Positions 5,455 through 22,568 of a DNA stretch of 64,000 nt are shown here, one piece after another. The notes beneath the pieces were generated by a model. That model ran no database searches and was not told the origin of the DNA. It saw nothing but the letters and a program-made list of their open reading frames with translations. Position 1 is the stretch's first letter. Each line of letters starts with the position of its first letter. Source of the stretch: an uncultured Ignavibacteria bacterium (GTDB taxonomy: Bacteria; Zixibacteria; MSB-5A5; CAIYYT01); the NCBI GenBank assembly GCA_964370935.1, contig CAYJKI010000010.1, forward strand, positions 4,420 through 68,419, read 5' to 3'. The position numbers and the translations under genes were made by a program.

Positions 5455-6852
5455 ATGTCTGCAGAAGCTTCATATACACAAGTGCCGATCGAGCTGCTAC
5501 GCAAGTACGATCGACCCGGACCGCGCTACACGAGCTATCCAACGGTGCCGGTTTGGAGCAACGAAATCGGACCAGAGCAATATGTCGCGGCATTACAGGC
5601 GACGAGCGTCAAGCGGGACTTGCCGTTGGCGCTGTATTGTCACATTCCGTTTTGCCGCAAACGGTGTTATTACTGCGGGTGCAATACCGTCATTACGAAC
5701 AATCCTGATCGAGTAAACAAGTATGTTGCGGATCTCGCCCTGGAGATAATCAACACGTCCGAGCATCTGGGCGAGCGCCGTAACGTTAGTCAACTCCATC
5801 TCGGCGGCGGAACTCCGACCTTTGTCGATTGTCGCGGTCTCGAGATTGTGCTGAAGGTAATTGATGACCGTTTCAAGTTCATCGCGGGTGCGGAGAAATC
5901 GATCGAAGTCGATCCGCGCGTAACGACGGACGAGCAGTTGGAGTTTTTGGCATCGGTGGGATTCAATCGCATTTCGATTGGCACGCAGGACTTTGATCCG
6001 GCTGTGCAGGAGGCGATCGGCAGAATTCAATCGTATGAGCGGGTGCAGCACATTATTGAAAAGGTGCGCACGATGCACTTCCGCGGAATCAATATTGATT
6101 TGATTTATGGTCTCCCGCGTCAGTCAGTCGAGAGCTTTAAAGCGACACTGGCGAAATCGATTTCCTTGCGACCCGATCGCGTGGCACTTTACTCATTTGC
6201 CTATCTTCCGCAGAATATGGCTAACCAGATGGCGATCAAATCGGAGGAGCTGCCAATGACAGAAGTCAAGTATCAGCTCTTTGCAACCGCGGTGGAAGAA
6301 TTTACTAAGGCAGGATATCGGCAGATCGGGATGGACCACTTCGCGCTGCCCGACGACGAGCTCGCTCTGGCGCAACAGGACGGGCGGCTACATCGCAATT
6401 TCATGGGTTACACGGTGCAGACAGCACCGGAGATGATTGGATTCGGCATGTCGGCAATTGGCTACGTCAATGATACGTTCTTCCAGAATTATTCCAAGCT
6501 CGACAGCTACGAAAATGCGATTCGCGAGAAGCGCTTCGCAATTTACCGAGGCATGAACCTGACCAAGGATGACCTGATCCGTCAGTATGTGATCAGTCAG
6601 TTGATGTGCAATTTCCGTCTGCATTATCAGGCTATCGAGCAGATGTTTGCAGTAAAGTATGATGAGTACTTCCGAAACGAACACCAGAGTCTCAATATCT
6701 TTCTTAATGATCATCTGATGACCGCCGACGAGAGCGGACTGCAGATTACACCGATAGGCCGCACTTTTGTCCGCAATATAGCCATGACGTTCGACGCGTA
6801 TCTCGACGGCAATGGCGAATCCAAAGGTGTCCGCTTCTCCCGTACGATATAG
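5455..6852 (+). CDS. hemN: Oxygen-independent coproporphyrinogen III oxidase (radical SAM)
   Basis: GPRYTSYPT, HIPFCRKRCYYCGC (CxxxCxxC), GGGTPT, IGMDHFA, LHRNFMGYT. Confidence 0.97.
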   Translation: MSAEASYTQVPIELLRKYDRPGPRYTSYPTVPVWSNEIGPEQYVAALQATSVKRDLPLALYCHIPFCRKRCYYCGCNTVITNNPDRVNKYVADLALEIINTSEHLGERRNVSQLHLGGGTPTFVDCRGLEIVLKVIDDRFKFIAGAEKSIEVDPRVTTDEQLEFLASVGFNRISIGTQDFDPAVQEAIGRIQSYERVQHIIEKVRTMHFRGINIDLIYGLPRQSVESFKATLAKSISLRPDRVALYSFAYLPQNMANQMAIKSEELPMTEVKYQLFATAVEEFTKAGYRQIGMDHFALPDDELALAQQDGRLHRNFMGYTVQTAPEMIGFGMSAIGYVNDTFFQNYSKLDSYENAIREKRFAIYRGMNLTKDDLIRQYVISQLMCNFRLHYQAIEQMFAVKYDEYFRNEHQSLNIFLNDHLMTADESGLQITPIGRTFVRNIAMTFDAYLDGNGESKGVRFSRTI

Positions 6853-6860
6853 GCGAAGTC

Positions 6861-7814
6861 ATGAGAAACAAGATCGCCGTCATCCTGCTCGCGATGGGCG
6901 GTCCCGATTCAACCGCCGATATTCCCGAATTTCTCTACAACATCTTCTCTGATCGCGCGATCATTCGGCTGCCGGGCGGAGCCGTTTTGCAGAAACCATT
7001 TGCCCGGCTGATCTCGCGGCTGCGCTCAAAGAACGTTGCCGCACATTATAGCCACATAGGCGGTGGATCACCGCTGCTCAAGTGGACACAGTCGCAGGCG
7101 CGACTGATTGGCGAAAATCTGCAGAAAGAGTTCGACGAGGTAACGTGCTATATCGGAATGCGTTATTTTCGACCGAGTATTGAATCGGCGATCAAGGCTG
7201 CGGTCGATGATGGTTACGAGCAACTTTGTGTCTTGCCGCTCTATCCGCAGTTCGCGACGGCGACGACGGGGTCATCGTTTGCCGTGGCACGCGAAGCATT
7301 GAAGGCATACCCACAAATTGAAGCGACCTTTATCCGAGACTTCCACGATTATCCGGAATACACACGCCTGCTGGGGGCATACATCGAGCGCAATATACAA
7401 CCCGGCGAAACGCTATTGTTTTCGGCACATTCGCTGCCGCAGAGATTTGTCGATGAAGGCGATCCGTATGTTGAGCAGGTCAAGAAGACTGCAGCGATGT
7501 CGGCTGGGAAGCGGGATTATCATCTCGCGTTTCAGAGCCGTACCGGGCCGGTGAAGTGGGTCGGGCCGGATACGGTAGTCGAAGTCAAGCGGCTGTTGGA
7601 GGACCCCATGTGCAGACTCTTCATAGTTCCAATCAGTTTTGTTTGCGATCATATCGAGACGCTCTATGAACTGGATATTCAATTGAAGGAATTGGTCGGC
7701 GCAGAAAAGGGAGCGCGGATTCGAAGGATGCCGATGTTCAACGACGATCTGAGTTTTGGCCGACTGCTGGCAGAACTCGTGTGTACGAAAGTGGGCGAGT
7801 ATGCCGGAAAATGA
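6861..7814 (+). CDS. hemH: Ferrochelatase
   Basis: LLAMGGP, IGGGSPL, LYPQF, FSAHSLP, FQSRTGPVKW, FVCDHIETLYELD. Confidence 0.96.
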   Translation: MRNKIAVILLAMGGPDSTADIPEFLYNIFSDRAIIRLPGGAVLQKPFARLISRLRSKNVAAHYSHIGGGSPLLKWTQSQARLIGENLQKEFDEVTCYIGMRYFRPSIESAIKAAVDDGYEQLCVLPLYPQFATATTGSSFAVAREALKAYPQIEATFIRDFHDYPEYTRLLGAYIERNIQPGETLLFSAHSLPQRFVDEGDPYVEQVKKTAAMSAGKRDYHLAFQSRTGPVKWVGPDTVVEVKRLLEDPMCRLFIVPISFVCDHIETLYELDIQLKELVGAEKGARIRRMPMFNDDLSFGRLLAELVCTKVGEYAGK

Positions 7815-9174
7815 TGTCATAATCATCGGCGGCGGAATATCCGGATTGGCGGCATTGCATTATCTTCGCCAGGACAAGCCAAATCTTAAAGTAAAATTGT
7901 TCGAAGCGGAACCGCGATTAGGCGGAACCATTGGGACCGACCGGATTGACGGTTACAGCTTTGACTCGGGGCCAAATGGGTTTCTTGATCGCGAGCCGTT
8001 AACGCTTCAGCTTTGCGATGAATTGGGGCTCAAGGAACAACTTGAACGCGCCAACGAGAGCGTCAACAACCGTTACATTCTCAAGGGGGGACGACTGCGC
8101 TCGGTGCCGATGTCGCCGCCGAAGTTTCTGATGGCGGATATCATTAGCTGGCCTGGGAAGATGCGAATTGCTCTGGAGCCCTTTTCCAAGAAACGTCCGG
8201 ATGGAATTGATGAATCGATTTACGACTTTGCCTGTCGGCGAATTGGCCGTGAAGCTGCAGATTATCTGGTACAGCCGATGGTCTCCGGTGTCTACGGCGG
8301 TGTCGCGCAGAAGATGTCACTGCAGTCGTGCTTTCCCATCATGCGTGAGATGGAGGACGAGCACGGCTCGCTATTCAAGGCAATGATCGCCAAAGCCAAA
8401 GCGGCAAAGGCAAAGGGCAAGAAGAGCGGTGGACCATCAGGTCCGGGCGGATGGTTAACATCATTCAAGGGCGGGCTGGACAGAATTGTCGTGCGGTTTC
8501 AGGAAACGTATGCACCGTTCATTTCAACAGGAAAGAGCGCGGAGTCGATCATGCGATCAGATGGCGGGTTCGTCGTTAAGTTTAAGGACGGTTTCAGTGA
8601 GACGACACGAAATGTCATCATGGCGACGCCTTCATACGAAACTGCGAAGATGACGGCGAAATTGTCGCCAGAGTTATCGCAGGCACTGGGATCGATTCCG
8701 TATGCGCCAATTGCGGTCGTGTGTGCAGGGTATCACGCCAAACAAGTCAAAGATCCGGTGAATGGATTTGGATTTCTAGTGCCGAAGAAGGAGAATCGGA
8801 AGATTCTCGGATCAATCTGGACCTCGTCGATATTTGCGGATCGCACCCCGCAGGGTATGGTTCAGTTTCGAACAATGGTTGGCGGCGACGGATTTCATGA
8901 GTCAGTTGACTTGACCGACGAGGAGCTGTTGACAGCAGTCAAGCAGGATTTAGGCGAGATTATGCACATCACGGGTGAGCCGGAAATGGTCAAGATGTAT
9001 CGCTGGAAATATGGCATCCCGCAGTATCGGGTCGGACATCGGAAGTTGCTTGATACCATCGAGCGGGAACTAACTTCGATTGGCGGGACTCACATTGCCG
9101 GAAACGCTTATTATGGCATCGGTCTCAATGATTGTGTGAAGCAGTCGCACAAAGTGGCGGGGCTGATTTCATAG
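7801..9174 (+). CDS. hemY: Protoporphyrinogen/coproporphyrinogen oxidase, HemY family (start placed at ATG 7801)
   Basis: IIGGGISGLAA FAD motif, GPNGFL, GFGFLVP, LGSIWTS, IPQY, GIGLNDCV. Confidence 0.93.
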   Translation: MPENDVIIIGGGISGLAALHYLRQDKPNLKVKLFEAEPRLGGTIGTDRIDGYSFDSGPNGFLDREPLTLQLCDELGLKEQLERANESVNNRYILKGGRLRSVPMSPPKFLMADIISWPGKMRIALEPFSKKRPDGIDESIYDFACRRIGREAADYLVQPMVSGVYGGVAQKMSLQSCFPIMREMEDEHGSLFKAMIAKAKAAKAKGKKSGGPSGPGGWLTSFKGGLDRIVVRFQETYAPFISTGKSAESIMRSDGGFVVKFKDGFSETTRNVIMATPSYETAKMTAKLSPELSQALGSIPYAPIAVVCAGYHAKQVKDPVNGFGFLVPKKENRKILGSIWTSSIFADRTPQGMVQFRTMVGGDGFHESVDLTDEELLTAVKQDLGEIMHITGEPEMVKMYRWKYGIPQYRVGHRKLLDTIERELTSIGGTHIAGNAYYGIGLNDCVKQSHKVAGLIS

Positions 9175-9197: not shown

Positions 9198-9980
9198 TTA
9201 CTCCAATCCGAACTTACGCTCCTCAAGGAAATTCTTCATATGTATTCGCAAAGTCGCGGGATTGTTGGTTGCTGCCCGGCGGGCGGAGTGTTCGGTCCAG
9301 GAGTAGTCGGCTGGGACGTCGCGGCCATCGGGAGTCGTGAGCTTGCGGTGAGCACCTTCGTAGAGCCCGGTCGCGCGAACGGTATTATCGTATTCCTGCA
9401 AGAGTCGAGCCAATGTCGCATCGTTGTATTCCTCCAAATGCACCACCGCCTGTTGAGGTAGACGGGGTTTGATCATCGGCTGCTGATCTGGATAGCCGAG
9501 GCAGATTCCCATTAAGGGGAAGACTCTTTGAGGCAGCTTAAGCAACTCGCAGACCTTGTCGGGATTGTTACGAATGCCGCCGATCATACAGATTCCCAGA
9601 CCCGCCGCTTCTGCCGCGACGGCGATGTTCTGGGCGACAAGTGCGGTATCGACGATTGACACGATGGAGATTTCGATATGGCGATCCTTGAATTGGTAGC
9701 AGCGTAACTTGCAGATTTCGTTTAGACGACGAAGATCCGGACACATCACGAGGAAAACCGGGCATTGTTCGATTTGAGCCTGATTGCCGCAATATTGTGC
9801 AAGCAGTTGTTTTTTTGCTGCGTCGCGGACGACGATAATCGAATACGGCTGAAGGTTTGACGAAGTTGGAGCTTGGCGAGCACACCCGAGAATTTTAACA
9901 AGCAACTCTTCTTCGACCGGGCGATTGGTGTAGCGACGGATTGACTTGTGTGATTGCAGCAACTCGAATATTTCCTGCAT
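9198..9980 (-). CDS. NADPH-dependent nitroreductase/flavin oxidoreductase, NfsA/NfrA1 family
   Basis: SHKSIRRY, APTSSNLQPYSII, GLGICMIGGIRN, KPRLP. Confidence 0.9.
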   Translation of the reverse strand: MQEIFELLQSHKSIRRYTNRPVEEELLVKILGCARQAPTSSNLQPYSIIVVRDAAKKQLLAQYCGNQAQIEQCPVFLVMCPDLRRLNEICKLRCYQFKDRHIEISIVSIVDTALVAQNIAVAAEAAGLGICMIGGIRNNPDKVCELLKLPQRVFPLMGICLGYPDQQPMIKPRLPQQAVVHLEEYNDATLARLLQEYDNTVRATGLYEGAHRKLTTPDGRDVPADYSWTEHSARRAATNNPATLRIHMKNFLEERKFGLE

Positions 9981-10559: not shown

Positions 10560-11918
10560 CTAAACTACACCTTGGTCGAGCATAGCATCGGCGACTTTTA
10601 CAAATCCGCCGATATTTGCACCATTGACGTAGTTAATATAATTGCCTTCGCGGCCGTAAGTCACGCAAGTCGTGTGGATTGCTTTCATGATGCCATGCAA
10701 TCTCTTGTCGACCTCTTCGCGCGACCAGGAAAGTCGGAGACTGTTCTGCGACATTTCCAATCCAGAGGTGGCAACACCACCGGCGTTTGCAGCCTTTCCG
10801 GGACCATAGAGAATCTTGTTGTCGATGAAGTGCTTAATGGCCTCGGGCGAGGATGGCATATTCGCGCCTTCGCTGACAACGTAGATACCATTGTTGATGA
10901 GGTTTTGGGCGTCTTTGCCGCTGATCTCATTCTGTGTTGCGGATGGGAAGGCACACTGGGCTTTGTGATTCCAGAGCGGATTGTGATCGCTTCCCGACTG
11001 GAGCGGCGAATAGACGGCGGTCTTGTATTTGTCCGCATACTCTTTGATGCGGCCGCGGCGATTGTTCTTGAGATCAAGCACGAATGCGAGTTTGTCGCGG
11101 TCAATTCCGGCCTCGTCATAGATGTAACCGGAAGAATCCGAGAGGGTCATCGGTTTGGCGCCGAGGTCAAGAAGTTTCTCGATCGTGTATTGCGCGACAT
11201 TGCCCGAGCCTGACACGAGACAACTCTTCCCTTGCAGCGATTCATTCCGAGTACCCAACATTTCGGCGGCGAAGTATACCGCTCCGTAACCAGTGGCTTC
11301 GGGCCGGATGAGACTGCCGCCCCAACCCAATCCCTTGCCGGTGAGGACACCGGTGAACTCATTACGGAGTTTCTTGTATTGGCCGAACAAGAAACCGATT
11401 TCGCGACCGCCCACGCCGATATCGCCTGCAGGTACGTCCGTGTCGGGCCCGATATGACGGCAGAGTTCGCTCATGAAGGCTTGGCAGAAGCGCATTACTT
11501 CCATATCCGATTTGCCTTTGGGGTCAAAGTCGGATCCGCCCTTGCCACCACCCATCGGCAGAGTAGTCAGACTGTTCTTAAATACTTGTTCGAAGGCGAG
11601 AAATTTCAGAATGCCAAGATTAACGGTAGGATGGAAACGCAGGCCGCCTTTATATGGCCCGATGGCAGAATTCATTTCAATCCGAAAGCCGCGGTTGACT
11701 CTGATTTCGCCGGAATCATCGACCCAGGGGACGCGGAACATCAGGACGCGCTCCGGTTCGACGACGCGCTCAAGGATTTTCGCTTCGCGATAAACCGGGT
11801 GCCGATCGAGGAACGGCATTAACGACTCCACGACTTCTTGTACCGCTTGGTGGAACTCTTTCTCGCCAGAATTCTTGGCTTTGACCTGCTCCATAAAGGC
11901 AGCAACGTTGCTCGACAT
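10560..11918 (-). CDS. gdhA: NADP-specific-type glutamate dehydrogenase (start placed at ATG 11918)
   Basis: EKEFHQAVQEV, GPYKGGLRFHP, FLAFEQVFKNSLT, PMGGGKGGSDFDPKGKS, GSGNVAQY; AAGGAGA RBS before MSSNVAAF. Confidence 0.95.
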   Translation of the reverse strand: MSSNVAAFMEQVKAKNSGEKEFHQAVQEVVESLMPFLDRHPVYREAKILERVVEPERVLMFRVPWVDDSGEIRVNRGFRIEMNSAIGPYKGGLRFHPTVNLGILKFLAFEQVFKNSLTTLPMGGGKGGSDFDPKGKSDMEVMRFCQAFMSELCRHIGPDTDVPAGDIGVGGREIGFLFGQYKKLRNEFTGVLTGKGLGWGGSLIRPEATGYGAVYFAAEMLGTRNESLQGKSCLVSGSGNVAQYTIEKLLDLGAKPMTLSDSSGYIYDEAGIDRDKLAFVLDLKNNRRGRIKEYADKYKTAVYSPLQSGSDHNPLWNHKAQCAFPSATQNEISGKDAQNLINNGIYVVSEGANMPSSPEAIKHFIDNKILYGPGKAANAGGVATSGLEMSQNSLRLSWSREEVDKRLHGIMKAIHTTCVTYGREGNYINYVNGANIGGFVKVADAMLDQGVV

Positions 11919-12014
11919 CGAGGTCTCCTTCGTTGGAATGTTTTTGTCGCGACACAAAAATAGAACAAACACTCTATATTTGTGTCGAAAATCTACCGAG
12001 GTGTCGATCAAAGC

Positions 12015-12032
12015 TTGTTATTGATTTCACAA
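12015..12032. promoter_or_regulatory. Rex-like operator between divergent gdhA and metallophosphoesterase
   Basis: TTGTTAT-TGAT-TTCACAA versus Rex consensus TTGTGAA-N4-TTCACAA (2 mismatches). Confidence 0.5.
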
Positions 12033-12169
12033 ACAAGTAACTCGTAATCGCAAGGATGGTCAAGACTAATGCCTTTCGATTTTCCTGAAAAGCTGCTTCG
12101 GTTTTCCTTAGAAGGATTTCTACATTGTTGCATCGCGCTTGCTGCGATTGAGAGTATATTACGAATCGT

Positions 12170-13057
12170 ATGCAATTGAAGAGCTCCGAGTGCATGTTCG
12201 TGTCTGACCTGCATGGCAGCGTTGACAAATATCATCGACTTTTTGCTGCAATCGAACGCGAAAAGCCAATGGCAGTCTTTGTCGGGGGTGATGTACTTCC
12301 GTCGGGAATTGGCACGCTGGTTTCGAAGCAGCCGGGAAGTCGGGACTTTTTGACACAGTTTGTTGCGCCGCGGCTGGAGCAAGTGCGCAAGAACCTCGGC
12401 GAAGATTATCCGGAGATATTTGTCATTTTGGGAAACGATGACGGCGCTTCATTGGAGCAAGTCATGCATGATCTCGACCATTTGGGATTGTGGCATTATA
12501 TGCACAACCGGATGGTTGAATTCGCAGGATACAAGATATTTGGTTATTCATTTGTCCCGCCAACGCCGTTCATGCTTAAAGATTGGGAGCGATATGATGT
12601 ATCGCGGTTTCTCGAAGCAGGCTGCATTGCTCCCGAAGAAGGTATTCACTCGTCTTCCTTCACGGTTGAAGAAGTTCTGTACGCGACGATTGAAAAGGAT
12701 CTCAAGAGCCTAAGCAATGGAATGGATATGACCCAATCGATATTTCTCTTTCACACTCCGCCATATCAGACGAAGCTTGACCGTGCCGCTTTGGATGGCA
12801 AATGCATAGACGGCGTCAGTCTCGACTTATTTGTTGGCTCGATAGCGGTAAGGCGGTTCATAGAGCGTCGGCAGCCATTTTTGACACTGCATGGACATGT
12901 TCACGAGTCAGCCCGACTAACCGGGTCATGGCAGGACGAAATCGGCCGCACGCGAATGTTTTCAGCAGCTCATGACGGTCCTGAATTGGCGGTGGTTTAT
13001 TTTGATCCGGGCAGGATCGACTTGGTCCGCCGCGAGCTTATGGGCGAAGTTAGATGA
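12170..13057 (+). CDS. Metallophosphoesterase (calcineurin-like)
   Basis: SDLHG, GGDVLP, LGNDD, FHTPP, LHGHVHE motifs. Confidence 0.88.
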   Translation: MQLKSSECMFVSDLHGSVDKYHRLFAAIEREKPMAVFVGGDVLPSGIGTLVSKQPGSRDFLTQFVAPRLEQVRKNLGEDYPEIFVILGNDDGASLEQVMHDLDHLGLWHYMHNRMVEFAGYKIFGYSFVPPTPFMLKDWERYDVSRFLEAGCIAPEEGIHSSSFTVEEVLYATIEKDLKSLSNGMDMTQSIFLFHTPPYQTKLDRAALDGKCIDGVSLDLFVGSIAVRRFIERRQPFLTLHGHVHESARLTGSWQDEIGRTRMFSAAHDGPELAVVYFDPGRIDLVRRELMGEVR

Positions 13058-13069
13058 GAGTATCCGATG

Positions 13070-16000
13070 CTATTTAGCAATTCTCCCCATCGGCAGGGGG
13101 CGAGCGGCATCGGTGACTGCACTTATCTTGAGTGCGTAGCTGTCCTGGTTAGCGATGTCCTGGTCGGTAACGATGTGGATATCGAGCATTCGTTCACTCT
13201 TCATACCGGTCCGTTCATAATTAATCTCCGACAAACAGAGGCTCCAACCGTCCAGCCAACTTTCTAATTCCCGCCTCTGTTCAGGCGTTCCGGCAAAGTG
13301 AATAAGCAGATCGATGTCGCTTCCCGGCCCGGCAGTAGCGTTCTTGGTTGAACCGAAGACATAGAAACCCTTGACGCCGAATTTTACCGGATTGAGCATC
13401 GCCGCAATCTGTTCGGCGATATTGAAGCGCCAGCGCCAGTAGTGTTCACCCGATGATCCGGTCAAGAGGGGCTCTTCCCACTGACCTTGGACCACAGAAC
13501 GCGGGGCAGCGAGTATGGCCATTGCCTGATCCAGATCGGAGTTCATCAGTACGTGGACAACCTGTCCGGAAGCAGTTTGCGGCACGTCGATCAGCCGCAC
13601 CACACCGGCGAGCTGTTCGAATTCAGGCAGAACCTCCAGCAGGATATTTCGGGACTGTTGCAGGAAAGTTTCATTGAGAATATTTGCACCGTCATCGGGA
13701 TATAACGGCAGATAACGAATCTTCGCTTCCACAAGGTCCTGGAAGAAGTGAGTTCCAAAGGACAGGTCGGGAACATAGTGTCCACTTTGACGGGCAATCT
13801 CGATCAGCATTGCGGTATTATTAATATCCGAATAAGTAACGCTGACGCCAAGTTTGATATCTCCGCGACTACCCCATCGGCCGGGTCCCATGAGAACGAA
13901 CTGTCGTTTTGGCAGAATTTGATTCAGTCGACTGATACAGCGACCCACCGACAATAGTTGTTGCCGATCCTTAATTGCGCCATACTTTTGCGGGTCAACG
14001 TACACCAAATGCGTGATGTCAGGCACTCTTCCGTTGGTGACATAGCGATTAGCCGTGAAGATGATCTTCTCCGGTGAAACATCTTTTGGGATCGACGCGG
14101 GAGCGCTGTCGTCGGAGTGGCTTTGCGGACGACATTGGAGCAGGTAAAAGTCGGTACCGTCGTGAGCAAATTCAAGATCCACCGGCGTACCGAGCTTTTC
14201 TTCCAGAGTTTTGAGTATTGATCGAACCTGCGCAATGAAATCCGTCTTGGTTAACAACCCTTCAAATGTGACGACTAAGCGTTCACTCTTGAAGTCGATA
14301 TGGCCGAGCGGACGTTGAATGTGATCGCCTTTATCGATCGACACGATCTGGTCGATCAACGGGATTTCATCGCCGAATTCATGCAGAAGTTCATCAATAT
14401 GATGTGTTTCAAAAGTGTTGGTTTCTAGATTTATGACATCAATCATCTTCGGCGAATAGCGCACCATTTCATCGACTGTGACATTAACCCGCAGCCCCGG
14501 CTGTCCAGGTGAAATCAAGATGGGATAGTCGTCGCTGGTGCGGTCAACGGCGCGGGTACCTAGTCCGGGCACGATTCGGATCAGACCATCATCGCGGTGA
14601 ATGCGCGGCGACCAGCGCAATTCATTGTGACTAAACGCCACTCCGGCAAAGGTGGGGAGGAAGTATTTGCCGGCCTTGGTTCCGATCACTTGTTGGATGA
14701 TGATGCCCATCTCTTCATGGAAGTCGAGCAGGCCGCGCTCGGCGCGGTACTCGATCGGGTCAGGTCCAAAGATAGAGGCATACACTTCAGCAATCGCATC
14801 CAACAGAGCTTCGAGGCGTTCTTCCTTTGTCCCTTGATTGGCCAGAAAGAGACTTTTGTATTTTCCCGAAAATGACGCGGCGGCGCGATCTTCGAGAAGG
14901 CTTGAACTGCGAACGATCAGGGGGTGATCGCTGAAGTCATCCAGCACGACGGAGAGGGCTTTCACAATTTCCGTTGGAAATACAGCATTCTTGAAAGTCT
15001 GAACGACGTTGGGATATTCCAGGCGGATCTGTTCGACATCCTTGTACTTTTGCTCGATTACTTCATCGAAATTGTTGTAGCTCATGAAGTGCAAGACAAC
15101 ATCGGAGCTGATGTACCAGGCTTTCGGTGTCTTGATATGTGCGAGCAATGGGTCGCTCTCAACAGATTTCTTTAAGATTTGTCCGGCGAGGAAAATACCT
15201 GCGGCTTTTCCACCCAACTTTCCGTGAGAGCCCGGAAGATAGATCACATTTTGCAGCAACTCGAAGATGTCGTAGACATCAGTGTAGTTTTTCGCAATGT
15301 TGATATACTGCAGATCTTCGGAAAAGATGCGCCGGATGAGCGATACCAGGAGTCCGCGCTTGGTGTTAATCGGAATATCGATTCCTTCCGGCGCCATACG
15401 ATGAAAACGGCGGATGGCTTCGTTCAGTTCCGAAAGCGGCGTATTGATATTCGCCAGAGTCTTGATCAGAAAGCTTAGTTTGTCCTGCTGGATCCATCTC
15501 TGAATGAAGGAAAGGATCTCGGCGGGCGTCAGATTATCGGAGGCAATCTTGAAAGTTTCGTCGCTGATAAAATCATTGCCCTGAAGCGCAACGCGTTTGC
15601 GATGCGGGACATTGGAGTCCGACAAGAGTGAAGCTGCTTCGGACGACTGTTCAGGGTCATAGTATTGCGTCAGGACTTTAGCCTCTTCGACGCCGCTCCA
15701 ACAAAGGTAGTTCAACATCTTGCTCGAAATCGTCAGAAAAAGATTGCGATCGGTTCGCCTAAGCAAATCAAGCACGACGCGCCATTCGGGCCGGGCATGC
15801 TCAACCAGTTCTTTTTCCGCGGTATTATACTGATTGTAGACCGATCGCATTTTCTGGAAGGCAATGTGGCTTGCCAGTCGTTCCGCGATGGTGGTGAGGA
15901 GTTTGCGTTCTTCCTTGAGGAATGGTCCGTCGTCTTCAGTCGGCATTTGTTGGGTATAATAGACGCTTAGTGTGCCGAGGACTTGATCAAAGACCTTTAA

Positions 16001-16258
16001 CGGCGCCGTCATAACCCACGGAGACTCTCGAAGACCGGAAGTTGTGTAGGTGGCGTCCTCAAGGACAATGCGCGCCTGACAGCACTCGGGGTGTTGCCAG
16101 CCCGCCGGGATCGCCTCGATAATTGCCATGCAAACCTGTTCGAGAGAGGCATCCGACTTGTTGAGCCATTCTTCAATCCGATAGAGGCAGTTGAGTTCTT
16201 TGGCACGCTCGCGCAGAAACCAGAGCAGTTTGTCGGTCGGCGGTGTGTGATCGCTCAT
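13070..16258 (-). CDS. PEP-synthase/PPDK nucleotide-binding (ATP-grasp) domain protein with N-terminal GAF-like segment and C-terminal nucleotidyltransferase domain
   Basis: KLGGKAAGI, VRSSSLLED, FSGKYKS, VPGLGTRAV, DLEFA, LLQCRP, FGTHFFQDLV; C-terminal VFGSTKNATAGPGSDIDL (GS...DxD); N-terminal LRERAKELNCLY. Confidence 0.82.
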   Translation of the reverse strand: MSDHTPPTDKLLWFLRERAKELNCLYRIEEWLNKSDASLEQVCMAIIEAIPAGWQHPECCQARIVLEDATYTTSGLRESPWVMTAPLKVFDQVLGTLSVYYTQQMPTEDDGPFLKEERKLLTTIAERLASHIAFQKMRSVYNQYNTAEKELVEHARPEWRVVLDLLRRTDRNLFLTISSKMLNYLCWSGVEEAKVLTQYYDPEQSSEAASLLSDSNVPHRKRVALQGNDFISDETFKIASDNLTPAEILSFIQRWIQQDKLSFLIKTLANINTPLSELNEAIRRFHRMAPEGIDIPINTKRGLLVSLIRRIFSEDLQYINIAKNYTDVYDIFELLQNVIYLPGSHGKLGGKAAGIFLAGQILKKSVESDPLLAHIKTPKAWYISSDVVLHFMSYNNFDEVIEQKYKDVEQIRLEYPNVVQTFKNAVFPTEIVKALSVVLDDFSDHPLIVRSSSLLEDRAAASFSGKYKSLFLANQGTKEERLEALLDAIAEVYASIFGPDPIEYRAERGLLDFHEEMGIIIQQVIGTKAGKYFLPTFAGVAFSHNELRWSPRIHRDDGLIRIVPGLGTRAVDRTSDDYPILISPGQPGLRVNVTVDEMVRYSPKMIDVINLETNTFETHHIDELLHEFGDEIPLIDQIVSIDKGDHIQRPLGHIDFKSERLVVTFEGLLTKTDFIAQVRSILKTLEEKLGTPVDLEFAHDGTDFYLLQCRPQSHSDDSAPASIPKDVSPEKIIFTANRYVTNGRVPDITHLVYVDPQKYGAIKDRQQLLSVGRCISRLNQILPKRQFVLMGPGRWGSRGDIKLGVSVTYSDINNTAMLIEIARQSGHYVPDLSFGTHFFQDLVEAKIRYLPLYPDDGANILNETFLQQSRNILLEVLPEFEQLAGVVRLIDVPQTASGQVVHVLMNSDLDQAMAILAAPRSVVQGQWEEPLLTGSSGEHYWRWRFNIAEQIAAMLNPVKFGVKGFYVFGSTKNATAGPGSDIDLLIHFAGTPEQRRELESWLDGWSLCLSEINYERTGMKSERMLDIHIVTDQDIANQDSYALKISAVTDAARPLPMGRIAK

Positions 16259-17991
16259 GCCTTGATCAATCCTCGCCCATTGCGGCCATCGATTTTGATG
16301 CGCAATGGCATACTAAGTTTGACATAACGTACAAATTCGGTTTCGCTGACGGTTGTCTGGCGATTAAGCCAGTCCCAATCTATACTAAACCGACTGCTAT
16401 GTGGTATCGAAAAATACCCAACCTGCGAACTTATCACATTGTGGAAGAAATGTGATCCCTGGGAGAGTTCGACGTCCATTCCCGGCAGCGAAGTTTCGAT
16501 GATGACCTTTGCTCCTGAAACCTGCCACCAACTGACGGGAATCCCGGCAGGAGGATCGGTCGTTCCCAGCCGGCCAAAAGTTATCATGAGATACGGGTGT
16601 CCCATAGCGACAAGTTTGTGATTCAGTTCCTCCAGTTCGGCGGCGATCCTCCATGACTCTTTGTCGGTAAATGACAGCGGTTTTTGAAAGACAACATCGC
16701 GAATCGTGTCGATTGCGCCGTTGCCGAGTACCCTTTCCGATGCGGCGATATTGTCAGTTTCAAGCAGCTCATCAACGGAGACATCAACGCGAGAGTGGGA
16801 AACGAACATGGGGCGTATCTGAAGAATCCAGAACTTGGCCTGCGGATCGCCTTCGGTATTGATGGTTACGGCAAACTCCATTTCGATTTCGTGGCCCTCG
16901 GCCGCCTCGGATAATTTGAGCAGATAACGAATCGCATCGTTGAGGCCAAGCTGATTTGACTTGAGCATTGGCGCGAAGTTCACCAACCGGGGACCATTGG
17001 CGTTGATGCCGGTAACGACGCGGTCATTGTCGGAAATGTATGTGGAAGCAACAAATTGAAGAGAACCATCCTGCTCGGCAGCTTCAAGAGGACACTGAAT
17101 CAGGTACTCGGTTTCGTTTAACGGATCATAGGGGACATGACCAAGATTCACGGCCCAAAACGAGGTCTGTGTATCAGACAACATGGCTTTAGTCGATTTG
17201 TAAGGAGGATTCGCCAGAGGAAATGTCGGGGAATACGTCCAACACTTGCCGCCTTCAACGACAGTCTTCCCTAATCCAAGTGCGAGGCTGACAATTCCGT
17301 CTTCCGGCTTGGCGTTTCCGGAACGGTAGAAGTTGTAAGAGCGCACGACACCGGATATGACAGGGTAAAAGCGATAATTCCTGCCGAAGCCAACGACCTT
17401 TTGGATGATGACGGCCATCTTCTCCTGATCGGGCGATTGGTGCGTCGTTCTAATATAATTCCGCGCGTCGCGGAAGAAGGTTGAAGCATAGACGTATTTG
17501 ATGGCTTCGGTCAAAGCGCGGAAACGGTAGTCGGGATCCTCACTGTGATGCGGAATCATTTTCGTGGCGTAGACGCCGGCAAACGGCTCGCGCAAGGCAT
17601 CTTCGAACAGGCTCGAAGAGCGAATGGCCAGAGGGTTGCGAACTTTGTTCGAGAGGGCGCGAAGATCGCCGACAACTTTGGCGGGTAGGCTGGCCTCAAG
17701 AAAGTAGTGGGCGATTTGGTCATCGCGCAAACTTTCATCATGAACAACATCATAAAGGCGATTTTCAGCCATGAACTCATCAAAGAGTTCGGTCGCCAGT
17801 ACGGTCATTGTCGGCATGTTGACGCTTAACGAGGGCAGCAGCGATTGGTCAATCTTGGGAATGACCAAGTCTTTCACAAGCGCAAGACCTTGAGCTTTGC
17901 CACCGATAGAGCCAGACCCGATGAAGGAAATGGTGCCGGTAGATTCGAAAGTCTGTCGATCGAAAGGAGTTAGTTTGTGCTGTTGCATCAA
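16255..17991 (-). CDS. PEP-synthase/PPDK nucleotide-binding domain protein (second paralogue)
   Basis: SIGGKAQGL, IRSSSLFED, FAGVYATK, LGLGKTVVEG, EMEFA, ILQIRP, QGSHFFHN; stop overlaps next start (ATGA). Confidence 0.82.
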   Translation of the reverse strand: MMQQHKLTPFDRQTFESTGTISFIGSGSIGGKAQGLALVKDLVIPKIDQSLLPSLSVNMPTMTVLATELFDEFMAENRLYDVVHDESLRDDQIAHYFLEASLPAKVVGDLRALSNKVRNPLAIRSSSLFEDALREPFAGVYATKMIPHHSEDPDYRFRALTEAIKYVYASTFFRDARNYIRTTHQSPDQEKMAVIIQKVVGFGRNYRFYPVISGVVRSYNFYRSGNAKPEDGIVSLALGLGKTVVEGGKCWTYSPTFPLANPPYKSTKAMLSDTQTSFWAVNLGHVPYDPLNETEYLIQCPLEAAEQDGSLQFVASTYISDNDRVVTGINANGPRLVNFAPMLKSNQLGLNDAIRYLLKLSEAAEGHEIEMEFAVTINTEGDPQAKFWILQIRPMFVSHSRVDVSVDELLETDNIAASERVLGNGAIDTIRDVVFQKPLSFTDKESWRIAAELEELNHKLVAMGHPYLMITFGRLGTTDPPAGIPVSWWQVSGAKVIIETSLPGMDVELSQGSHFFHNVISSQVGYFSIPHSSRFSIDWDWLNRQTTVSETEFVRYVKLSMPLRIKIDGRNGRGLIKA

Positions 17992-18050
17992 AACCTCTTG
18001 TAGCGCGTCGGGCTTAATCCAAAGAGGTGCGAATTGACTCGCTCGCCAAC

Positions 18051-18104
18051 AAAAACAATCGGGTTCCGCGCAAAGACTGATTGTCCGGCGCGAAACCCGA
18101 ATTG
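18051..18104 (-). terminator. Hairpin plus T-tract between the Glu/Leu/Phe/Val dehydrogenase and the PPDK-like genes
   Basis: Imperfect inverted repeat CAATCGGGTTCCGCGC...GCGCGAAACCCGAATTG; minus strand ends GATTGTTTTT. Confidence 0.55.
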
Positions 18105-18120
18105 CTATCTGACTATAGAA

Positions 18121-19407
18121 TTAGACCCAGCCGCGATCGCGACAGGCCTGTGCCACGCGGCTGACGGCGATCATATACGCCGCATCCCGCATGTACAGTT
18201 TCTTCTTTTTAGCAAGATCGCTGACATCGGAGAATGCCGACGTCATCTTTATATCGAGCTTTCCAAGAACTTCATCTTTTTCCCAGAAGTAGTTCATGTT
18301 GCTCTGAACCTGTTCGAAGTAGCTGCAAGTCACTCCGCCGGCGTTGGCAAGGAAATCAGGGATCATGAAGATTCCGCGATCTTCAAAAACCTTGTCAGCT
18401 TCCGGAGTAGTCGGTCCGTTGGCGCCTTCGGCGACAATGCGAACCTTCTTGGAGATCTTCTGCACTGTTTCAGCAGTTACCTGGTTTTCGATCGCTGCCG
18501 GAACCAGGATATCGACATCCTGCTCAATCCAGGCACCGCCCGGAAGGATTTCGTAGCCGAGGTCTTTGGCTTTCGTCTTGTCGATGCCGCCGAAGCGATC
18601 GACGATGCCCATGAGTTCGTCGAAGCTGATACCCGACATCTTGCGATAGGTGTAAGAGACCTGGTCCTTTTGGTCCCAGCAGGAAACGCAGATCGCGTGG
18701 CCACCCATGCGTTGGTACAGTTGGAGTGCGTATTGCGATACGTTTCCGAATCCCTGAAACGCCGCGGTGGTGTTTTCGGGCTTGATATTCATGAGCTTGA
18801 GGGCTTCGCGAACGGTGTACATTACGCCATAACCGGTGGCTTCAGTGCGGCCCAGTGAACCGCCCATGCCGACCGGTTTGCCGGTGATCAGTCCCGGGCT
18901 CTTTTCGCCGACGATAGCTTCGTATTCATCGAGCATCCAAAGCATATGCTGGGCATTGGTCATAACATCGGGAGCGGGGACGTCGGCCAATGGACCGACA
19001 TTGCGCCAGAGCTGGCGGATCCAACCGCGGCAGATTTGCTGCTGTTCGTGCTGGCTAAGATTGTGCGGATCGCAAATGACGCCGCCCTTGCCGCCACCGA
19101 GCGGAATATTGACGACGGAGCATTTCCAAGTCATCCACATTGAAAGCGCACGAACCGTGTCCACGGTTTCTTGCGGGTGGAATCGAATACCGCCTTTGCT
19201 CGGGCCTCTGGCGTCATTGTGCTGGACCCGGAATCCGCGAAATATCTTTGTCTTGCCGTCGTCCATGCGGACGGGGATGCTGAATTGATATTCGCGCAAC
19301 GGCCAGCGCAGTAGTTCGCGAGTGCCGCTGTCGAGATTCAGGAACTCCGCAGCTTTGTCAAACTGCTGCTGCGCCATCGCAAAGGGGTTAAACGAATCGC
19401 TCTTCAT
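18121..19407 (-). CDS. Glu/Leu/Phe/Val dehydrogenase, probable catabolic NAD(P) glutamate dehydrogenase
   Basis: VQHNDARGPSKGGIRFHP, MTWKC, GGGKGG, DVPAPD, ITGKP, ATGYGV, QGFGNV, EGANGP, ANAGGVTCSYFE. Confidence 0.93.
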   Translation of the reverse strand: MKSDSFNPFAMAQQQFDKAAEFLNLDSGTRELLRWPLREYQFSIPVRMDDGKTKIFRGFRVQHNDARGPSKGGIRFHPQETVDTVRALSMWMTWKCSVVNIPLGGGKGGVICDPHNLSQHEQQQICRGWIRQLWRNVGPLADVPAPDVMTNAQHMLWMLDEYEAIVGEKSPGLITGKPVGMGGSLGRTEATGYGVMYTVREALKLMNIKPENTTAAFQGFGNVSQYALQLYQRMGGHAICVSCWDQKDQVSYTYRKMSGISFDELMGIVDRFGGIDKTKAKDLGYEILPGGAWIEQDVDILVPAAIENQVTAETVQKISKKVRIVAEGANGPTTPEADKVFEDRGIFMIPDFLANAGGVTCSYFEQVQSNMNYFWEKDEVLGKLDIKMTSAFSDVSDLAKKKKLYMRDAAYMIAVSRVAQACRDRGWV

Positions 19408-19788: not shown

Positions 19789-20457
19789 TTACTTGCGGAA
19801 TCTGCGAGCGATCCCGGCGCCTACAAGGCCCATTCCCAGAAGAACGATTGTGGCCGGTTCCGGCACTTCATCACTGCTGGCAATTTTACCGCCAACTACC
19901 ATATCATTGTGGTCGTAGTTGCCGTAACCGCCGCGATAATCATCGATGAAGAGAAGGAAATCATAGTCGCCAGAGAAGGAAATATTGCCTTCTTCAAAGA
20001 AGTAGTTGGCATTTCCGAACGGCGTATTGTAGCCGCGGAAGAACTGGTAACCGTTGTAAGGAGCGGTTAATGAACGGTCGGAGAAAAGCCAGCGATCGCC
20101 TTCGTAAGAGCGATAGCGTCCATTGTCGTTCTGGTCGCTAAAAAGCGAAAATCCATAGTTACCGTTTAAATTGAAGCTGCGAGTTGTACCGGCGCCGTCG
20201 TTGTCGTCAAAGATCGTTTGATAGATTGACGGACTTTCCCAGTTATGGAGAAACAGTGTGTTACGGTTTGCGTACGAAGTCGCTTCAGCCAAAAGCGTGA
20301 ATTGAATCTCGTTGTAGGCTGACAGATAGAGGTCCTGATAGTTGTTGGCAACCGGGGTTTCCGACACCAACGAACCATTGACGAACAAATTGGGAGCAGC
20401 AAAGGCCTGGCTAGAGATCCCTGCCAGCACCGCCGCGATTATCAGAAATTTTCTCAT
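19789..20457 (-). CDS. Secreted PEP-CTERM (exosortase-sorted) surface protein
   Basis: Signal peptide MRKFLIIAAVLAGISSQAFA; C-terminal VPEPATIVLLGMGLVGAGIARRFRK; DYDHNDMVV DUF4114-like motif; GAGGAGG upstream. Confidence 0.92.
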   Translation of the reverse strand: MRKFLIIAAVLAGISSQAFAAPNLFVNGSLVSETPVANNYQDLYLSAYNEIQFTLLAEATSYANRNTLFLHNWESPSIYQTIFDDNDGAGTTRSFNLNGNYGFSLFSDQNDNGRYRSYEGDRWLFSDRSLTAPYNGYQFFRGYNTPFGNANYFFEEGNISFSGDYDFLLFIDDYRGGYGNYDHNDMVVGGKIASSDEVPEPATIVLLGMGLVGAGIARRFRK

Positions 20458-20514
20458 CGGTAGAGATGACCTCCTCGTCATTTGACGCACATACTATTAA
20501 CCAAACACAAATTA

Positions 20515-21653: not shown

Positions 21654-22568
21654 ATGATCAAAATTGCCTACACCTCGGATCTTCACGTTGATTACTCAAA
21701 CGAGAATCGCGAACTGGTCGCGCGTTTGACGGAGTCAGCGGTCGCTGCAAAGCCGGATGTGCTGATCATCGGCGGAGATATTGCGGCGTCGCCGACCGAT
21801 TTCGGATGGGCATTGGGAAGCTTTGCGGAAGTGAAATGCCGGAAGTTGGTAGTTGCTGGAAATCATGACATTTGGATTGAATCGAAGTCAGATATTCTCA
21901 ACGGCAAAGACTCGGGCGCCAAGTACCAGCAGATGCTGCCGAAGGTTGCTGCTGATAACGGATTTGAGTTTCTCTTCGAAAAGGCAGTTGTGATTGATGA
22001 TGTCGGATTCGCGGGTTGTATGGGGTGGTTTGACTACTCGTTTCGAAATCACAAATTCGACGATTCGACACCATTGGAGCAGTATCGTATCGGTAAATGG
22101 CAAAGCCCAAGCAGCGGGAAGAACTTCCTTTGGAATGACATGCAATACGTGTGGTGGTTGAAAGATCTGTCGGCGAAAATGAGCGGATTTACGCGCAACG
22201 ACTTGTGTTTGTCTGACAGCGAAATTGCGAATTTGATGGCCAAGTCGCTTTCGCAACAACTTGATCAACTGGCGGGAGAATCGGTACGCCAAATTGTGGT
22301 GGTTACGCATTTCGTCCCGAATCGTGGGTTGCTGGAATATCGCGATTCGATACCGCATGATTACTTCAATGCCTATCACGGCAGCGTGGGAGTCGAGCGC
22401 TTAATTGGCGGACAGAGCAACATATCCAATGTGTTCTTTGGACATTCGCATGTCGCGAAGGATGCCACATTAGATGGTATTCGGTATGTATCGCGCCCGG
22501 TGGGATATTTGGGATCAGGTCGCACGGTTGCGGATGCTTCCGCCAAGTTGGCGATTGTCGAAATTTAG
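21654..22568 (+). CDS. Metallophosphoesterase (calcineurin-like)
   Basis: SDLHVD, GGDIA, AGNHD, VTHFVP, FGHSH. Confidence 0.88.
   Translation: MIKIAYTSDLHVDYSNENRELVARLTESAVAAKPDVLIIGGDIAASPTDFGWALGSFAEVKCRKLVVAGNHDIWIESKSDILNGKDSGAKYQQMLPKVAADNGFEFLFEKAVVIDDVGFAGCMGWFDYSFRNHKFDDSTPLEQYRIGKWQSPSSGKNFLWNDMQYVWWLKDLSAKMSGFTRNDLCLSDSEIANLMAKSLSQQLDQLAGESVRQIVVVTHFVPNRGLLEYRDSIPHDYFNAYHGSVGVERLIGGQSNISNVFFGHSHVAKDATLDGIRYVSRPVGYLGSGRTVADASAKLAIVEI

Follow-up and report, generated by a model that had tools for sequence, protein, structure and literature searches.

Why would the gene for glutamate dehydrogenase (GDH), an enzyme at the junction of carbon and nitrogen metabolism, be accompanied by two genes for dikinase-like proteins and one for a phosphoesterase? 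The question arises from a stretch of 64,000 nucleotides (the window) of an uncultured Ignavibacteria bacterium (contig CAYJKI010000010.1, positions 4,420 to 68,419). GDH is followed there by two proteins, which we call A and B, that carry the PPDK_N ATP-grasp domain of phosphoenolpyruvate (PEP) synthase (PpsA) and pyruvate phosphate dikinase (PPDK), and a metallophosphoesterase gene lies convergent with B. A sequence-only reading of the window had proposed that A and B mark a GDH, or make a signal, and that the phosphoesterase erases it. We found that this arrangement recurs in many genomes, and we give an even chance to the reading that the cassette is a GDH-dedicated, sensor-driven regulatory switch of dikinase ancestry. 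The five open reading frames (ORFs), with their coordinates and domains, are as the sequence-only reading had described them, and the list below adds further features found here:

18121-19407, minus strand: GDH, 428 residues, B-linked subfamily, first gene of the cassette (Pfam ELFV_dehydrog_N and ELFV_dehydrog)
18640-18681, minus strand: inserted loop of GDH, residues 243-256, specific to the subfamily (alignment of GDHs)
18045-18113, minus strand: hairpin then U-run between GDH and A, resembling a terminator or attenuator (RNA fold)
16255-17991, minus strand: protein A, 578 residues, PPDK_N and C-terminal histidine module
16774-17910, minus strand: PPDK_N ATP-grasp of A, residues 28-406 (Pfam, E 4.9e-33)
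16258-16779, minus strand: histidine module of A, residues 405-578, with invariant H514 in S-Q-G-S-H-F-F-H-N
13070-16258, minus strand: protein B, 1062 residues (Pfam and structure-model matches)
15239-16258, minus strand: GAF-like and helical N-terminus of B, residues 1-340
14078-15220, minus strand: PPDK_N of B, residues 347-727 (Pfam, E 7.8e-60)
13454-14086, minus strand: histidine module of B, residues 725-935, with invariant H837
13073-13441, minus strand: Pol-beta nucleotidyltransferase of B, residues 940-1062 (NTP_transf_2)
12170-13057, plus strand: metallophosphoesterase, 295 residues, convergent with B (Pfam Metallophos)
10560-12011, minus strand: NADP-type gdhA, divergent from the phosphoesterase, an accessory neighbour (NCBIfam PRK09414)

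A cassette that recurs around protein B

We scanned relatives at one genome per species, covering at least 587 species, and kept 80 loci, in which neighbours were counted by tblastn and only loci with enough flank were scored. A linked GDH, defined as a member of the P0003 subfamily (at least 55% identical to the window GDH) on the same strand and at most 2.3 kb upstream of B, was found in 61 of the 68 assessable loci. Hence, linkage of the homologues to gdh, a check set beforehand, holds. Protein A is encoded directly upstream of B in 56 of 73 assessable loci and the phosphoesterase at most 600 bp downstream in 39 of 67; relative to B, the latter is convergent in 38 cases and co-directional in 4. 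All-against-all clustering of ORFs returned only four families that recur around B, namely B itself, GDH, A, and the phosphoesterase. A fifth cluster (12 loci) lies opposite the GDHs found by tblastn and was discarded, as it looks like an antisense artefact of the crude ORF caller. Full-length identity of B to its homologues is 53-87% across phyla (among the matches listed), and a FastTree phylogeny of B shows intermixed phyla with 13 phylum labels, which for metagenome bins may be unreliable. The order GDH-(A)-B and its spacing are kept across these 13 labels, and since the arrangement recurs across phyla, it is far beyond chance. Among the seven loci without a linked GDH, L023 has a GDH 5 kb upstream with one gene inserted between, while L047 and L078 have a divergent GDH and a long A-like paralogue.

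The linkage could instead reflect co-transfer of a mobile block, or a cassette that controls something other than GDH activity, such as gdh transcription or another nitrogen enzyme. The mixing of phyla on the B tree suggests that the block spreads horizontally, and receiver-like paralogues of A (see below) could feed a transcription circuit. In addition, no physical link to GDH in the form of a GDH-PPDK_N fusion was found among 50 longer GDH homologues, which is weak evidence. However, ORF clustering revealed no recurrent mobility genes beside the four families, whose order and spacing are constant across the phylum labels. Pfam-level domain scans found no DNA-binding domain in A, B, or the A-like paralogues, and the matched GDH subfamily, with its signature loop, argues for coupling at the protein level. 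We consider both co-transfer and another target very unlikely.

The core of the cassette is GDH with B, whereas A and the phosphoesterase are an optional, linked pair. In 13 loci without A, GDH lies a median of 195 bp before B. Among loci that could be assessed for both genes, 34 of the 46 with A contain the phosphoesterase. It also occurs in 2 of the 14 without an adjacent A, both of which have an A-like paralogue nearby, and in none of the 12 loci that lack any A-type gene. The B genes of A-less loci are not a separate subfamily, as they are scattered on the B tree and require at least three changes. The same division is found within single genomes that have two B genes, for which we analysed both copies from 7 genomes and two further second copies. 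Each of these genomes holds one full (GDH-A-B-phosphoesterase) and one short (GDH-B) cassette. The 7 full cassettes all have A and the phosphoesterase, and 6 have a GDH at least 66% identical to P0003 directly upstream; the other has NADP-type gdhA and a 41% identical GDH beside it. None of the 9 short cassettes has A or the phosphoesterase, while 8 have their own GDH directly upstream (61-77% identical to P0003), and the remaining one, in G045, has a 75% identical GDH around 18 kb away on the same contig. These matched duplicates of GDH and B argue for a protein-specific relation between the two.

Co-occurrence agrees with linkage. Among 285 genomes of the phylum of the window, 145 have both B (E<=1e-100) and a subfamily GDH (E<=1e-185), 14 only B, 3 only GDH, and 123 neither, counts that overstate independence as the genomes are related, which lessens their weight for a dedicated switch. 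Two of the GDH-only genomes are G018, which has a fragment of A at a contig end, and G058, which is 58% complete. We inspected 5 of the 14 B-only genomes: GDH is split in two pieces in G261; in G120, one GDH is truncated at a contig end and a second is 58% identical; the contig of G265 begins inside A; and G068 and G063 have NADP-type gdhA in the upstream position instead.

Dikinase-like proteins with a histidine module

A and B align as paralogues across the ATP-grasp and the C-terminal module, with an identity of 24% in 529 residues (E 1e-27). Their alignment places GSHFF of A on GTHFF of B, so that the C-terminal histidine that the sequence-only reading had pointed out in both proteins is now aligned pairwise. 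The A stop and the B start overlap in ATGA, in agreement with the proposed translational coupling. Both exceed by far the Pfam cut-off of 27 bits for PPDK_N (PF01326; 203.3 bits for B and 115.2 for A), and the nucleotide-site motifs of the ATP-grasp are conserved among homologues of each. Structure models (pLDDT, the predicted local distance difference test, 87.8 for A and 71.3 for B) matched the ATP-grasp domains of the solved structures 2ols, 1kbl, and 1vbg. Judging from conserved motifs and ligands, A, B, and the phosphoesterase look catalytically intact.

The public records name these genes PEP synthase, dikinase, or nucleotidyltransferase. Entries titled "phosphoenolpyruvate synthase" or "pyruvate, water dikinase", together with the strong PPDK_N match, would suit an ordinary PEP synthase or PPDK. 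Like PpsA and PPDK, A and B have a PPDK_N domain with conserved nucleotide-site motifs and a histidine-bearing part next in order. In contrast to them, they lack the PEP-utilizers swivel domain and the triose-phosphate isomerase (TIM) barrel that binds PEP or pyruvate: Pfam gave no match to PEP-utilizers or PEP-utilizers_C in either protein, not even when their C-terminal parts were searched alone at E<=10, and the absence of PF02896 is in line with the earlier claim that the barrel is missing. A and B fail all equivalog cut-offs, and the two PEP synthase models of NCBIfam, which require 598 and 739.75 bits, give 61 and 60.4, roughly ten-fold less. Furthermore, a separate, canonical dikinase of 989 residues with a PEP-utilizers domain is encoded elsewhere in the same genome. 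As the sequence-only reading held, A and B thus do not appear to be ordinary PEP synthases, an identity to which we give next to no credence, and this corrects a common misannotation of such genes as PEP synthase or PPDK.

Nor do they resemble the rifampin phosphotransferase, PigC, or RedH types of dikinase, with 45-60 bits against cut-offs of 999-1350 (RIF_Ptrans_rph 51.2 against 999, PigC 44.8-47 against 1300) in matches restricted to a portion of the ATP-grasp. In A and B we detected no counterpart to the substrate-binding domain of these enzymes, nor to their C-terminal swivel histidine domain. With VIA, the part of 5hv1 that aligns stops at chain residue 750, which we take to lie before its histidine domain.

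The sensor-like N-terminus and the nucleotidyltransferase attributed to B both found support. The GAF domain scores 21.2 bits on the whole protein, below the cut-off of 22.4, and reaches 22.4 on the isolated N-terminus. The B model matches dikinase ATP-grasp domains, the GAF domains of 3p01 and 3cit, and the nucleotidyltransferase 2rff. At the C-terminus, NTP_transf_2 (PF01909) matches residues 960-997 (E 3.2e-07) with 31.1 bits, or 35.2 for the isolated domain (cut-off 21). The motif G969-S970-x10-D981-x-D983, read from the translation, is invariant in 20 homologues, and with the Pfam match and the Foldseek match to 2rff it places the domain in the Pol-beta superfamily. It does not qualify as an MntA-type antitoxin nucleotidyltransferase, since NF047752, the best NCBIfam transferase match of B, scores 19.1 bits against a cut-off of 60. 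A single-sequence search of the PDB with the domain gave nothing useful. We also considered anti-phage defence and rejected it, as PADLOC gave only weak matches to generic domains (PDC-S09 with 26.1 bits on the nucleotidyltransferase, PDC-S10 with 29.9 bits on the phosphoesterase, and none for A).

A complex of A and B, as proposed by the sequence-only reading, is suggested by natural fusions in the order A then B. Among 120 listed B homologues, 8 have 1629-1648 residues, and one of 1639 residues (P0175) has PPDK_N stretches as well as histidine modules in duplicate, and its A-like part comes first. A-like proteins also occur as paralogues of about 700-1550 residues with receiver-like and DUF5752-like N-termini (receiver matches at or under the Pfam cut-off). 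Long ones, of about 990-1560 residues, were found in the loci L015, L046, L064, and L078 and as P0238, P0261, and P0250, and some have more than 900 residues without assignment ahead of PPDK_N. Together, the GAF-like N-terminus of B and the receiver-like or DUF5752-like parts of these paralogues give the family a regulatory flavour.

The module that follows PPDK_N is harder to place. A and B share an N, the motif G-R-(W)-G, an E, and S-x-G-x-H-F-F, of which H514 (A) and H837 (B) are invariant in homologues. A search of 1.8 billion representatives returned 2325 proteins with the module at E<=0.001, and in 16 of 16 sampled architectures it lies directly C-terminal of PPDK_N, where PEP synthase has its phosphohistidine domain. 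We compared it by hhalign with 17 PEP-utilizers domains (PF00391) from related genomes, using a GDH profile as a control: the histidine remained unaligned and the result was no better than the control. The module may be a very diverged analogue of the PEP-utilizers domain. In Pfam, the module (around 170 residues in A) had no match at E<=10. From PDB sequences, a hidden Markov model search retrieved a repeat-protein artefact and nothing else, no match from the ESM Atlas was usable, and the match lists of whole-model Foldseek and VIA searches were filled by the ATP-grasp. An alignment by eye to classical histidine-domain motifs was dropped because the profile comparison did not support it.

The closest precedent in working may be VadK (Rv1127c) of Mycobacterium tuberculosis. 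Its report (PMC13400623) describes a truncated PPDK that autophosphorylates on His422 and binds the metabolic enzymes that it controls, and whose histidine part, a phospho-transfer histidine domain, is superposed there on solved structures of PPDK. According to this description, VadK is, like A and B, derived from a dikinase that kept the ATP-grasp and a histidine part and lost the PEP/pyruvate barrel. In contrast, the module of A and B has no detectable similarity to the classical domain, a comparison in which VadK enters by its description only. As described there, VadK is a single protein without GAF, nucleotidyltransferase, paralogous partner, or phosphoesterase, and it targets enzymes that belong to the methylcitrate cycle, and not GDH. 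By analogy, it is the best model for the way in which A and B may work.

A candidate switch on glutamate dehydrogenase

The window GDH belongs to the hexameric Glu/Leu/Phe/Val dehydrogenases (PF02812 with 182.8 bits, PF00208 with 236.2), and its active-site lysine motif G-G-G-K-G-G is invariant in 25 sequences. Its nearest solved structures are the hexameric GDHs of Thermococcus and Pyrococcus (1euz and 1gtm, E 1e-123). As it stays under every NCBIfam equivalog cut-off (best GdhA_Arch, 477.5 against 750), the label "catabolic-type" given to it before was the earlier reader's inference. It is 63-82% identical to the GDHs upstream of B in related loci, with which it shares two insertions relative to the solved archaeal GDHs and to GDHs of B-less genomes. 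One is small (G-G-I-D-K...G-Y-E); the other, of six residues, gives the loop [CS]-W-D-Q-x-D-Q-x-S-Y-x-[FY]-[RK]-K (residues 243-256). Residues 238-260 are gap-free in all 84 locus GDHs of at least 60% identity, among which W244 is kept in 82, D245 in 80, Q246 in 82, S251 in 73, and Y252 in 78. The motif occurs in none of 21 GDH matches below 60% identity, and neither the GDHs of B-less genomes nor the gdhA of the window have the loop. In a Rossmann fold, the adenosine ribose of the coenzyme is read after the second strand. The alignment to 1euz and 1gtm, combined with this knowledge, suggests that strand two of the dinucleotide fold leads straight into the loop, which would lie beside the coenzyme site.

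A switch dedicated to this GDH could work as follows. The GAF-like N-terminus of B would sense a metabolite, and the PPDK_N ATP-grasp would load phosphate onto the invariant histidine of the C-terminal module, as modelled on PpsA, PPDK, and VadK with their own histidine domains. B would act as a dimer, with its paralogue A in the window and with itself elsewhere. Once charged, it would act on its cognate GDH by binding or by covalent transfer, either of phosphate from the histidine or of a nucleotide from the Pol-beta domain, and so switch GDH. The best candidate site would be the subfamily loop, with its conserved Ser-Tyr beside the coenzyme pocket, and the metallophosphoesterase, which travels with A, would reverse a mark. 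In this scheme, the nucleotidyltransferase, A, and the phosphoesterase would form an optional layer of the full cassette. Presumed here are the loading of the histidine, the choice of GDH as target and of a site on it, the direction of control, and the role of the eraser, and the Ser-Tyr loop as the modified site is the boldest presumption among them. In a more specific version, which is possible although we hold it only tentatively, a covalent on/off switch dedicated to GDH would exist in bacteria of many phyla, functionally akin to AceK for isocitrate dehydrogenase and GlnE for glutamine synthetase. It would modify the Ser-Tyr loop and gate coenzyme binding according to a GAF-sensed metabolite. 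A predicted complex of B residues 1-345 with GDH scored 0.00 against a mark of 0.32, with controls not included, and speaks neither for nor against contact.

Beyond the relatedness of the genomes already mentioned, several observations weigh against a dedicated switch. Contact of A or B with GDH is something that we infer, and fusions of GDH with PPDK_N are missing, as described above. Phosphorylation of the histidine in A and B would follow by analogy, because the module has no detectable homology to the PEP-utilizers domain (hhalign probability 0.8%, E 0.066), and the module of B is poorly predicted (pLDDT below 50 for residues 793-858). No GDH lies beside B in the Planctomycete loci L026 and L048 or in L056 and L073. 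Conversely, G060, the third GDH-only genome and 99% complete, carries the loop in a GDH of 77% identity but lacks any match to B at E<=1e-100, and neither A nor B lies within 8 kb of this gene, from which it follows that this GDH works without B. The nucleotidyltransferase is absent from 6 of the 9 short-cassette copies of B, which end near residue 920, so nucleotidylation cannot be the core chemistry. Finally, rifampin phosphotransferase, HpeI, and PEP synthase, to which the ATP-grasp is structurally closest, all phosphorylate small molecules and not proteins.

This last point leads to the alternative of a small-molecule dikinase with A and B as its two subunits, which would serve the pathway of GDH and phosphorylate a substrate, product, or coenzyme of GDH while converting ATP to AMP. 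The phosphoesterase would then hydrolyse the product or an intermediate, and the N-terminus of B would bind the substrate and be no sensor. The hydroxyphenylethanone dikinase HpeHI, of which phenylphosphate synthase is a relative, offers a comparison. As far as the accessible part of its report goes (PMC12167813), it consists of one ATP subunit and one histidine subunit, whereas the paralogues A and B each carry an ATP-grasp and a histidine module. For a pathway enzyme, a separate copy for each GDH paralogue would be needless, yet the duplicates are pairs of GDH and B. GAF-like and receiver-like domains and a nucleotidyltransferase are typical of regulators, and G060 retains GDH without B. The hairpin and U-run that follow GDH (-36.7 kcal/mol, z -5.83, equalled by 0 of 200 shuffles) would fit a lower expression of A and B than of GDH; a crude scan found such a hairpin (at most -10 kcal/mol) with a U-tail after GDH in 14 of 64 related loci. 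We regard a small-molecule dikinase as unlikely, if worth keeping in view.

The phosphoesterase bears on another alternative, a local second-messenger loop. It is a calcineurin-like metallophosphoesterase (PF00149, 30.8 bits against a cut-off of 21.5) without a PDB match in a single-sequence search. Its metal-site motifs (D13-x-H15, G-D41, G-N89-D-D, H195, and H241-G-H243-x-H245) are kept in at least 95% of 36 orthologues. The nucleotidyltransferase of B, perhaps primed by the dikinase part, could make a nucleotide signal that acts allosterically on GDH and is degraded by the phosphoesterase. An intact G-S-x10-D-x-D Pol-beta transferase indeed lies beside a phosphoesterase whose third motif, G-N-D-D, presumably resembles that of phosphodiesterase-type members. 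The only NCBIfam match of the latter is the phosphodiesterase YfcE-like PRK09453 (21.2 bits, far under the cut-off of 117), and the GDH loop would adjoin the nucleotide pocket. However, the transferase is lost in the 6 short cassettes that keep GDH and B, and the phosphoesterase tracks A and not the transferase, being absent from all 12 loci without A-type genes although B keeps the transferase there. Moreover, the domain is of a minimal type, with MntA as its best, low-scoring match, and the characterised members of this type modify proteins. A nucleotide signal therefore seems quite unlikely to us, though like the small-molecule dikinase it is still a rival to reckon with for the GDH-dedicated switch, which fits the data best.

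Dedicated covalent control is textbook knowledge for glutamine synthetase and isocitrate dehydrogenase: GlnE with glutamine synthetase, GlnD with PII, and AceK with isocitrate dehydrogenase are covalent-modification switches. The families differ from A and B, GlnE and GlnD being larger nucleotidyltransferases, AceK a kinase/phosphatase, and SelO a pseudokinase. For GDH itself, the accessible part of one report describes inactivation of the mammalian enzyme in mitochondria through AMPylation by SelO (PMC12375108). GlnE, GlnD, AceK, and SelO share with the proposed cassette the logic of a dedicated writer and eraser for one central enzyme. Our literature searches found no description of the cassette and no bacterial GDH switch of a comparable kind. 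New here are the coupling of A to the phosphoesterase, the paired duplications, the B copies without nucleotidyltransferase, the signature loop of GDH, the phylum-wide co-occurrence, and the negative homology test of the histidine module. If the switch exists, it would be a new layer of control for bacterial GDH in hundreds of species of many phyla, mostly uncultured lineages from sediment, sludge, and subsurface samples. It would also involve a new phosphate-carrying module joined to a dikinase ATP-grasp, and the loop of the linked GDHs provides a concrete, testable candidate site.

The second dehydrogenase and other neighbours

The product of 10560-12011 is an NADP-specific GDH, as the sequence-only reading had it, since it exceeds the curated cut-off of NCBIfam PRK09414 (747.6 bits against 536). 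As residue 32 is the first to align with the NCBIfam model, translation probably begins at the ATG at 11918. A balance between anabolic and catabolic GDH, which that reading had proposed, receives modest comparative support: an NADP-type gdhA at least 55% identical to that of the window occurs in 11 of the 80 loci, and in a few variants within the phylum it takes the upstream position, but it is accessory to the cassette. Further loci flanked by gdhA are L081, L083, L090, L136, L139, and L141.

The variants in question are L136 (G068:C5), L141 (G063:C85), and L081 (G037:C7), which lack the subfamily GDH and have in its upstream place an NADP-type gdhA with 76-77% identity to that of the window, co-directional in L136 and divergent in L141 and L081. 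Beyond their phosphoesterase lies a GDH-family gene of 40-45% identity. In L139 (G120:C165), a further B-like gene (10993-13779; 52% identity over query residues 11-941) is convergent and just past the phosphoesterase of a full cassette, which results in two back-to-back B genes. The split GDH of G261 (L137, G261:C7, 11555-12839) consists of two overlapping tblastn pieces with 76% and 80% identity, for which a frameshift or an assembly error is possible.

Around the cassette of the window, a second metallophosphoesterase (21654-22568, plus strand, Metallophos 44 bits) lies 2 kb past GDH. We rejected it as a paralogue of the cassette phosphoesterase, as the two have no meaningful similarity (E 0.027). 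A further sensor-phosphatase, a protein of 739 residues with GAF and SpoIIE (PP2C-type phosphatase) domains, is encoded 5 kb from the cassette (24443-26662, plus strand) and did not recur among related loci in the ORF clustering. Directly upstream of the GDH gene, a protein of 233 residues (19789-20490, minus strand) has a PEP-CTERM sorting motif at its C-terminus. On the other side lies a run of haem-biosynthesis type with a HemN-like radical SAM protein (5455-6852), a ferrochelatase (6861-7814), and, as its third gene, a protoporphyrinogen-oxidase-like flavin amine oxidase (7756-9174), which is followed by a gene of the nitroreductase family (9198-9980, minus strand).

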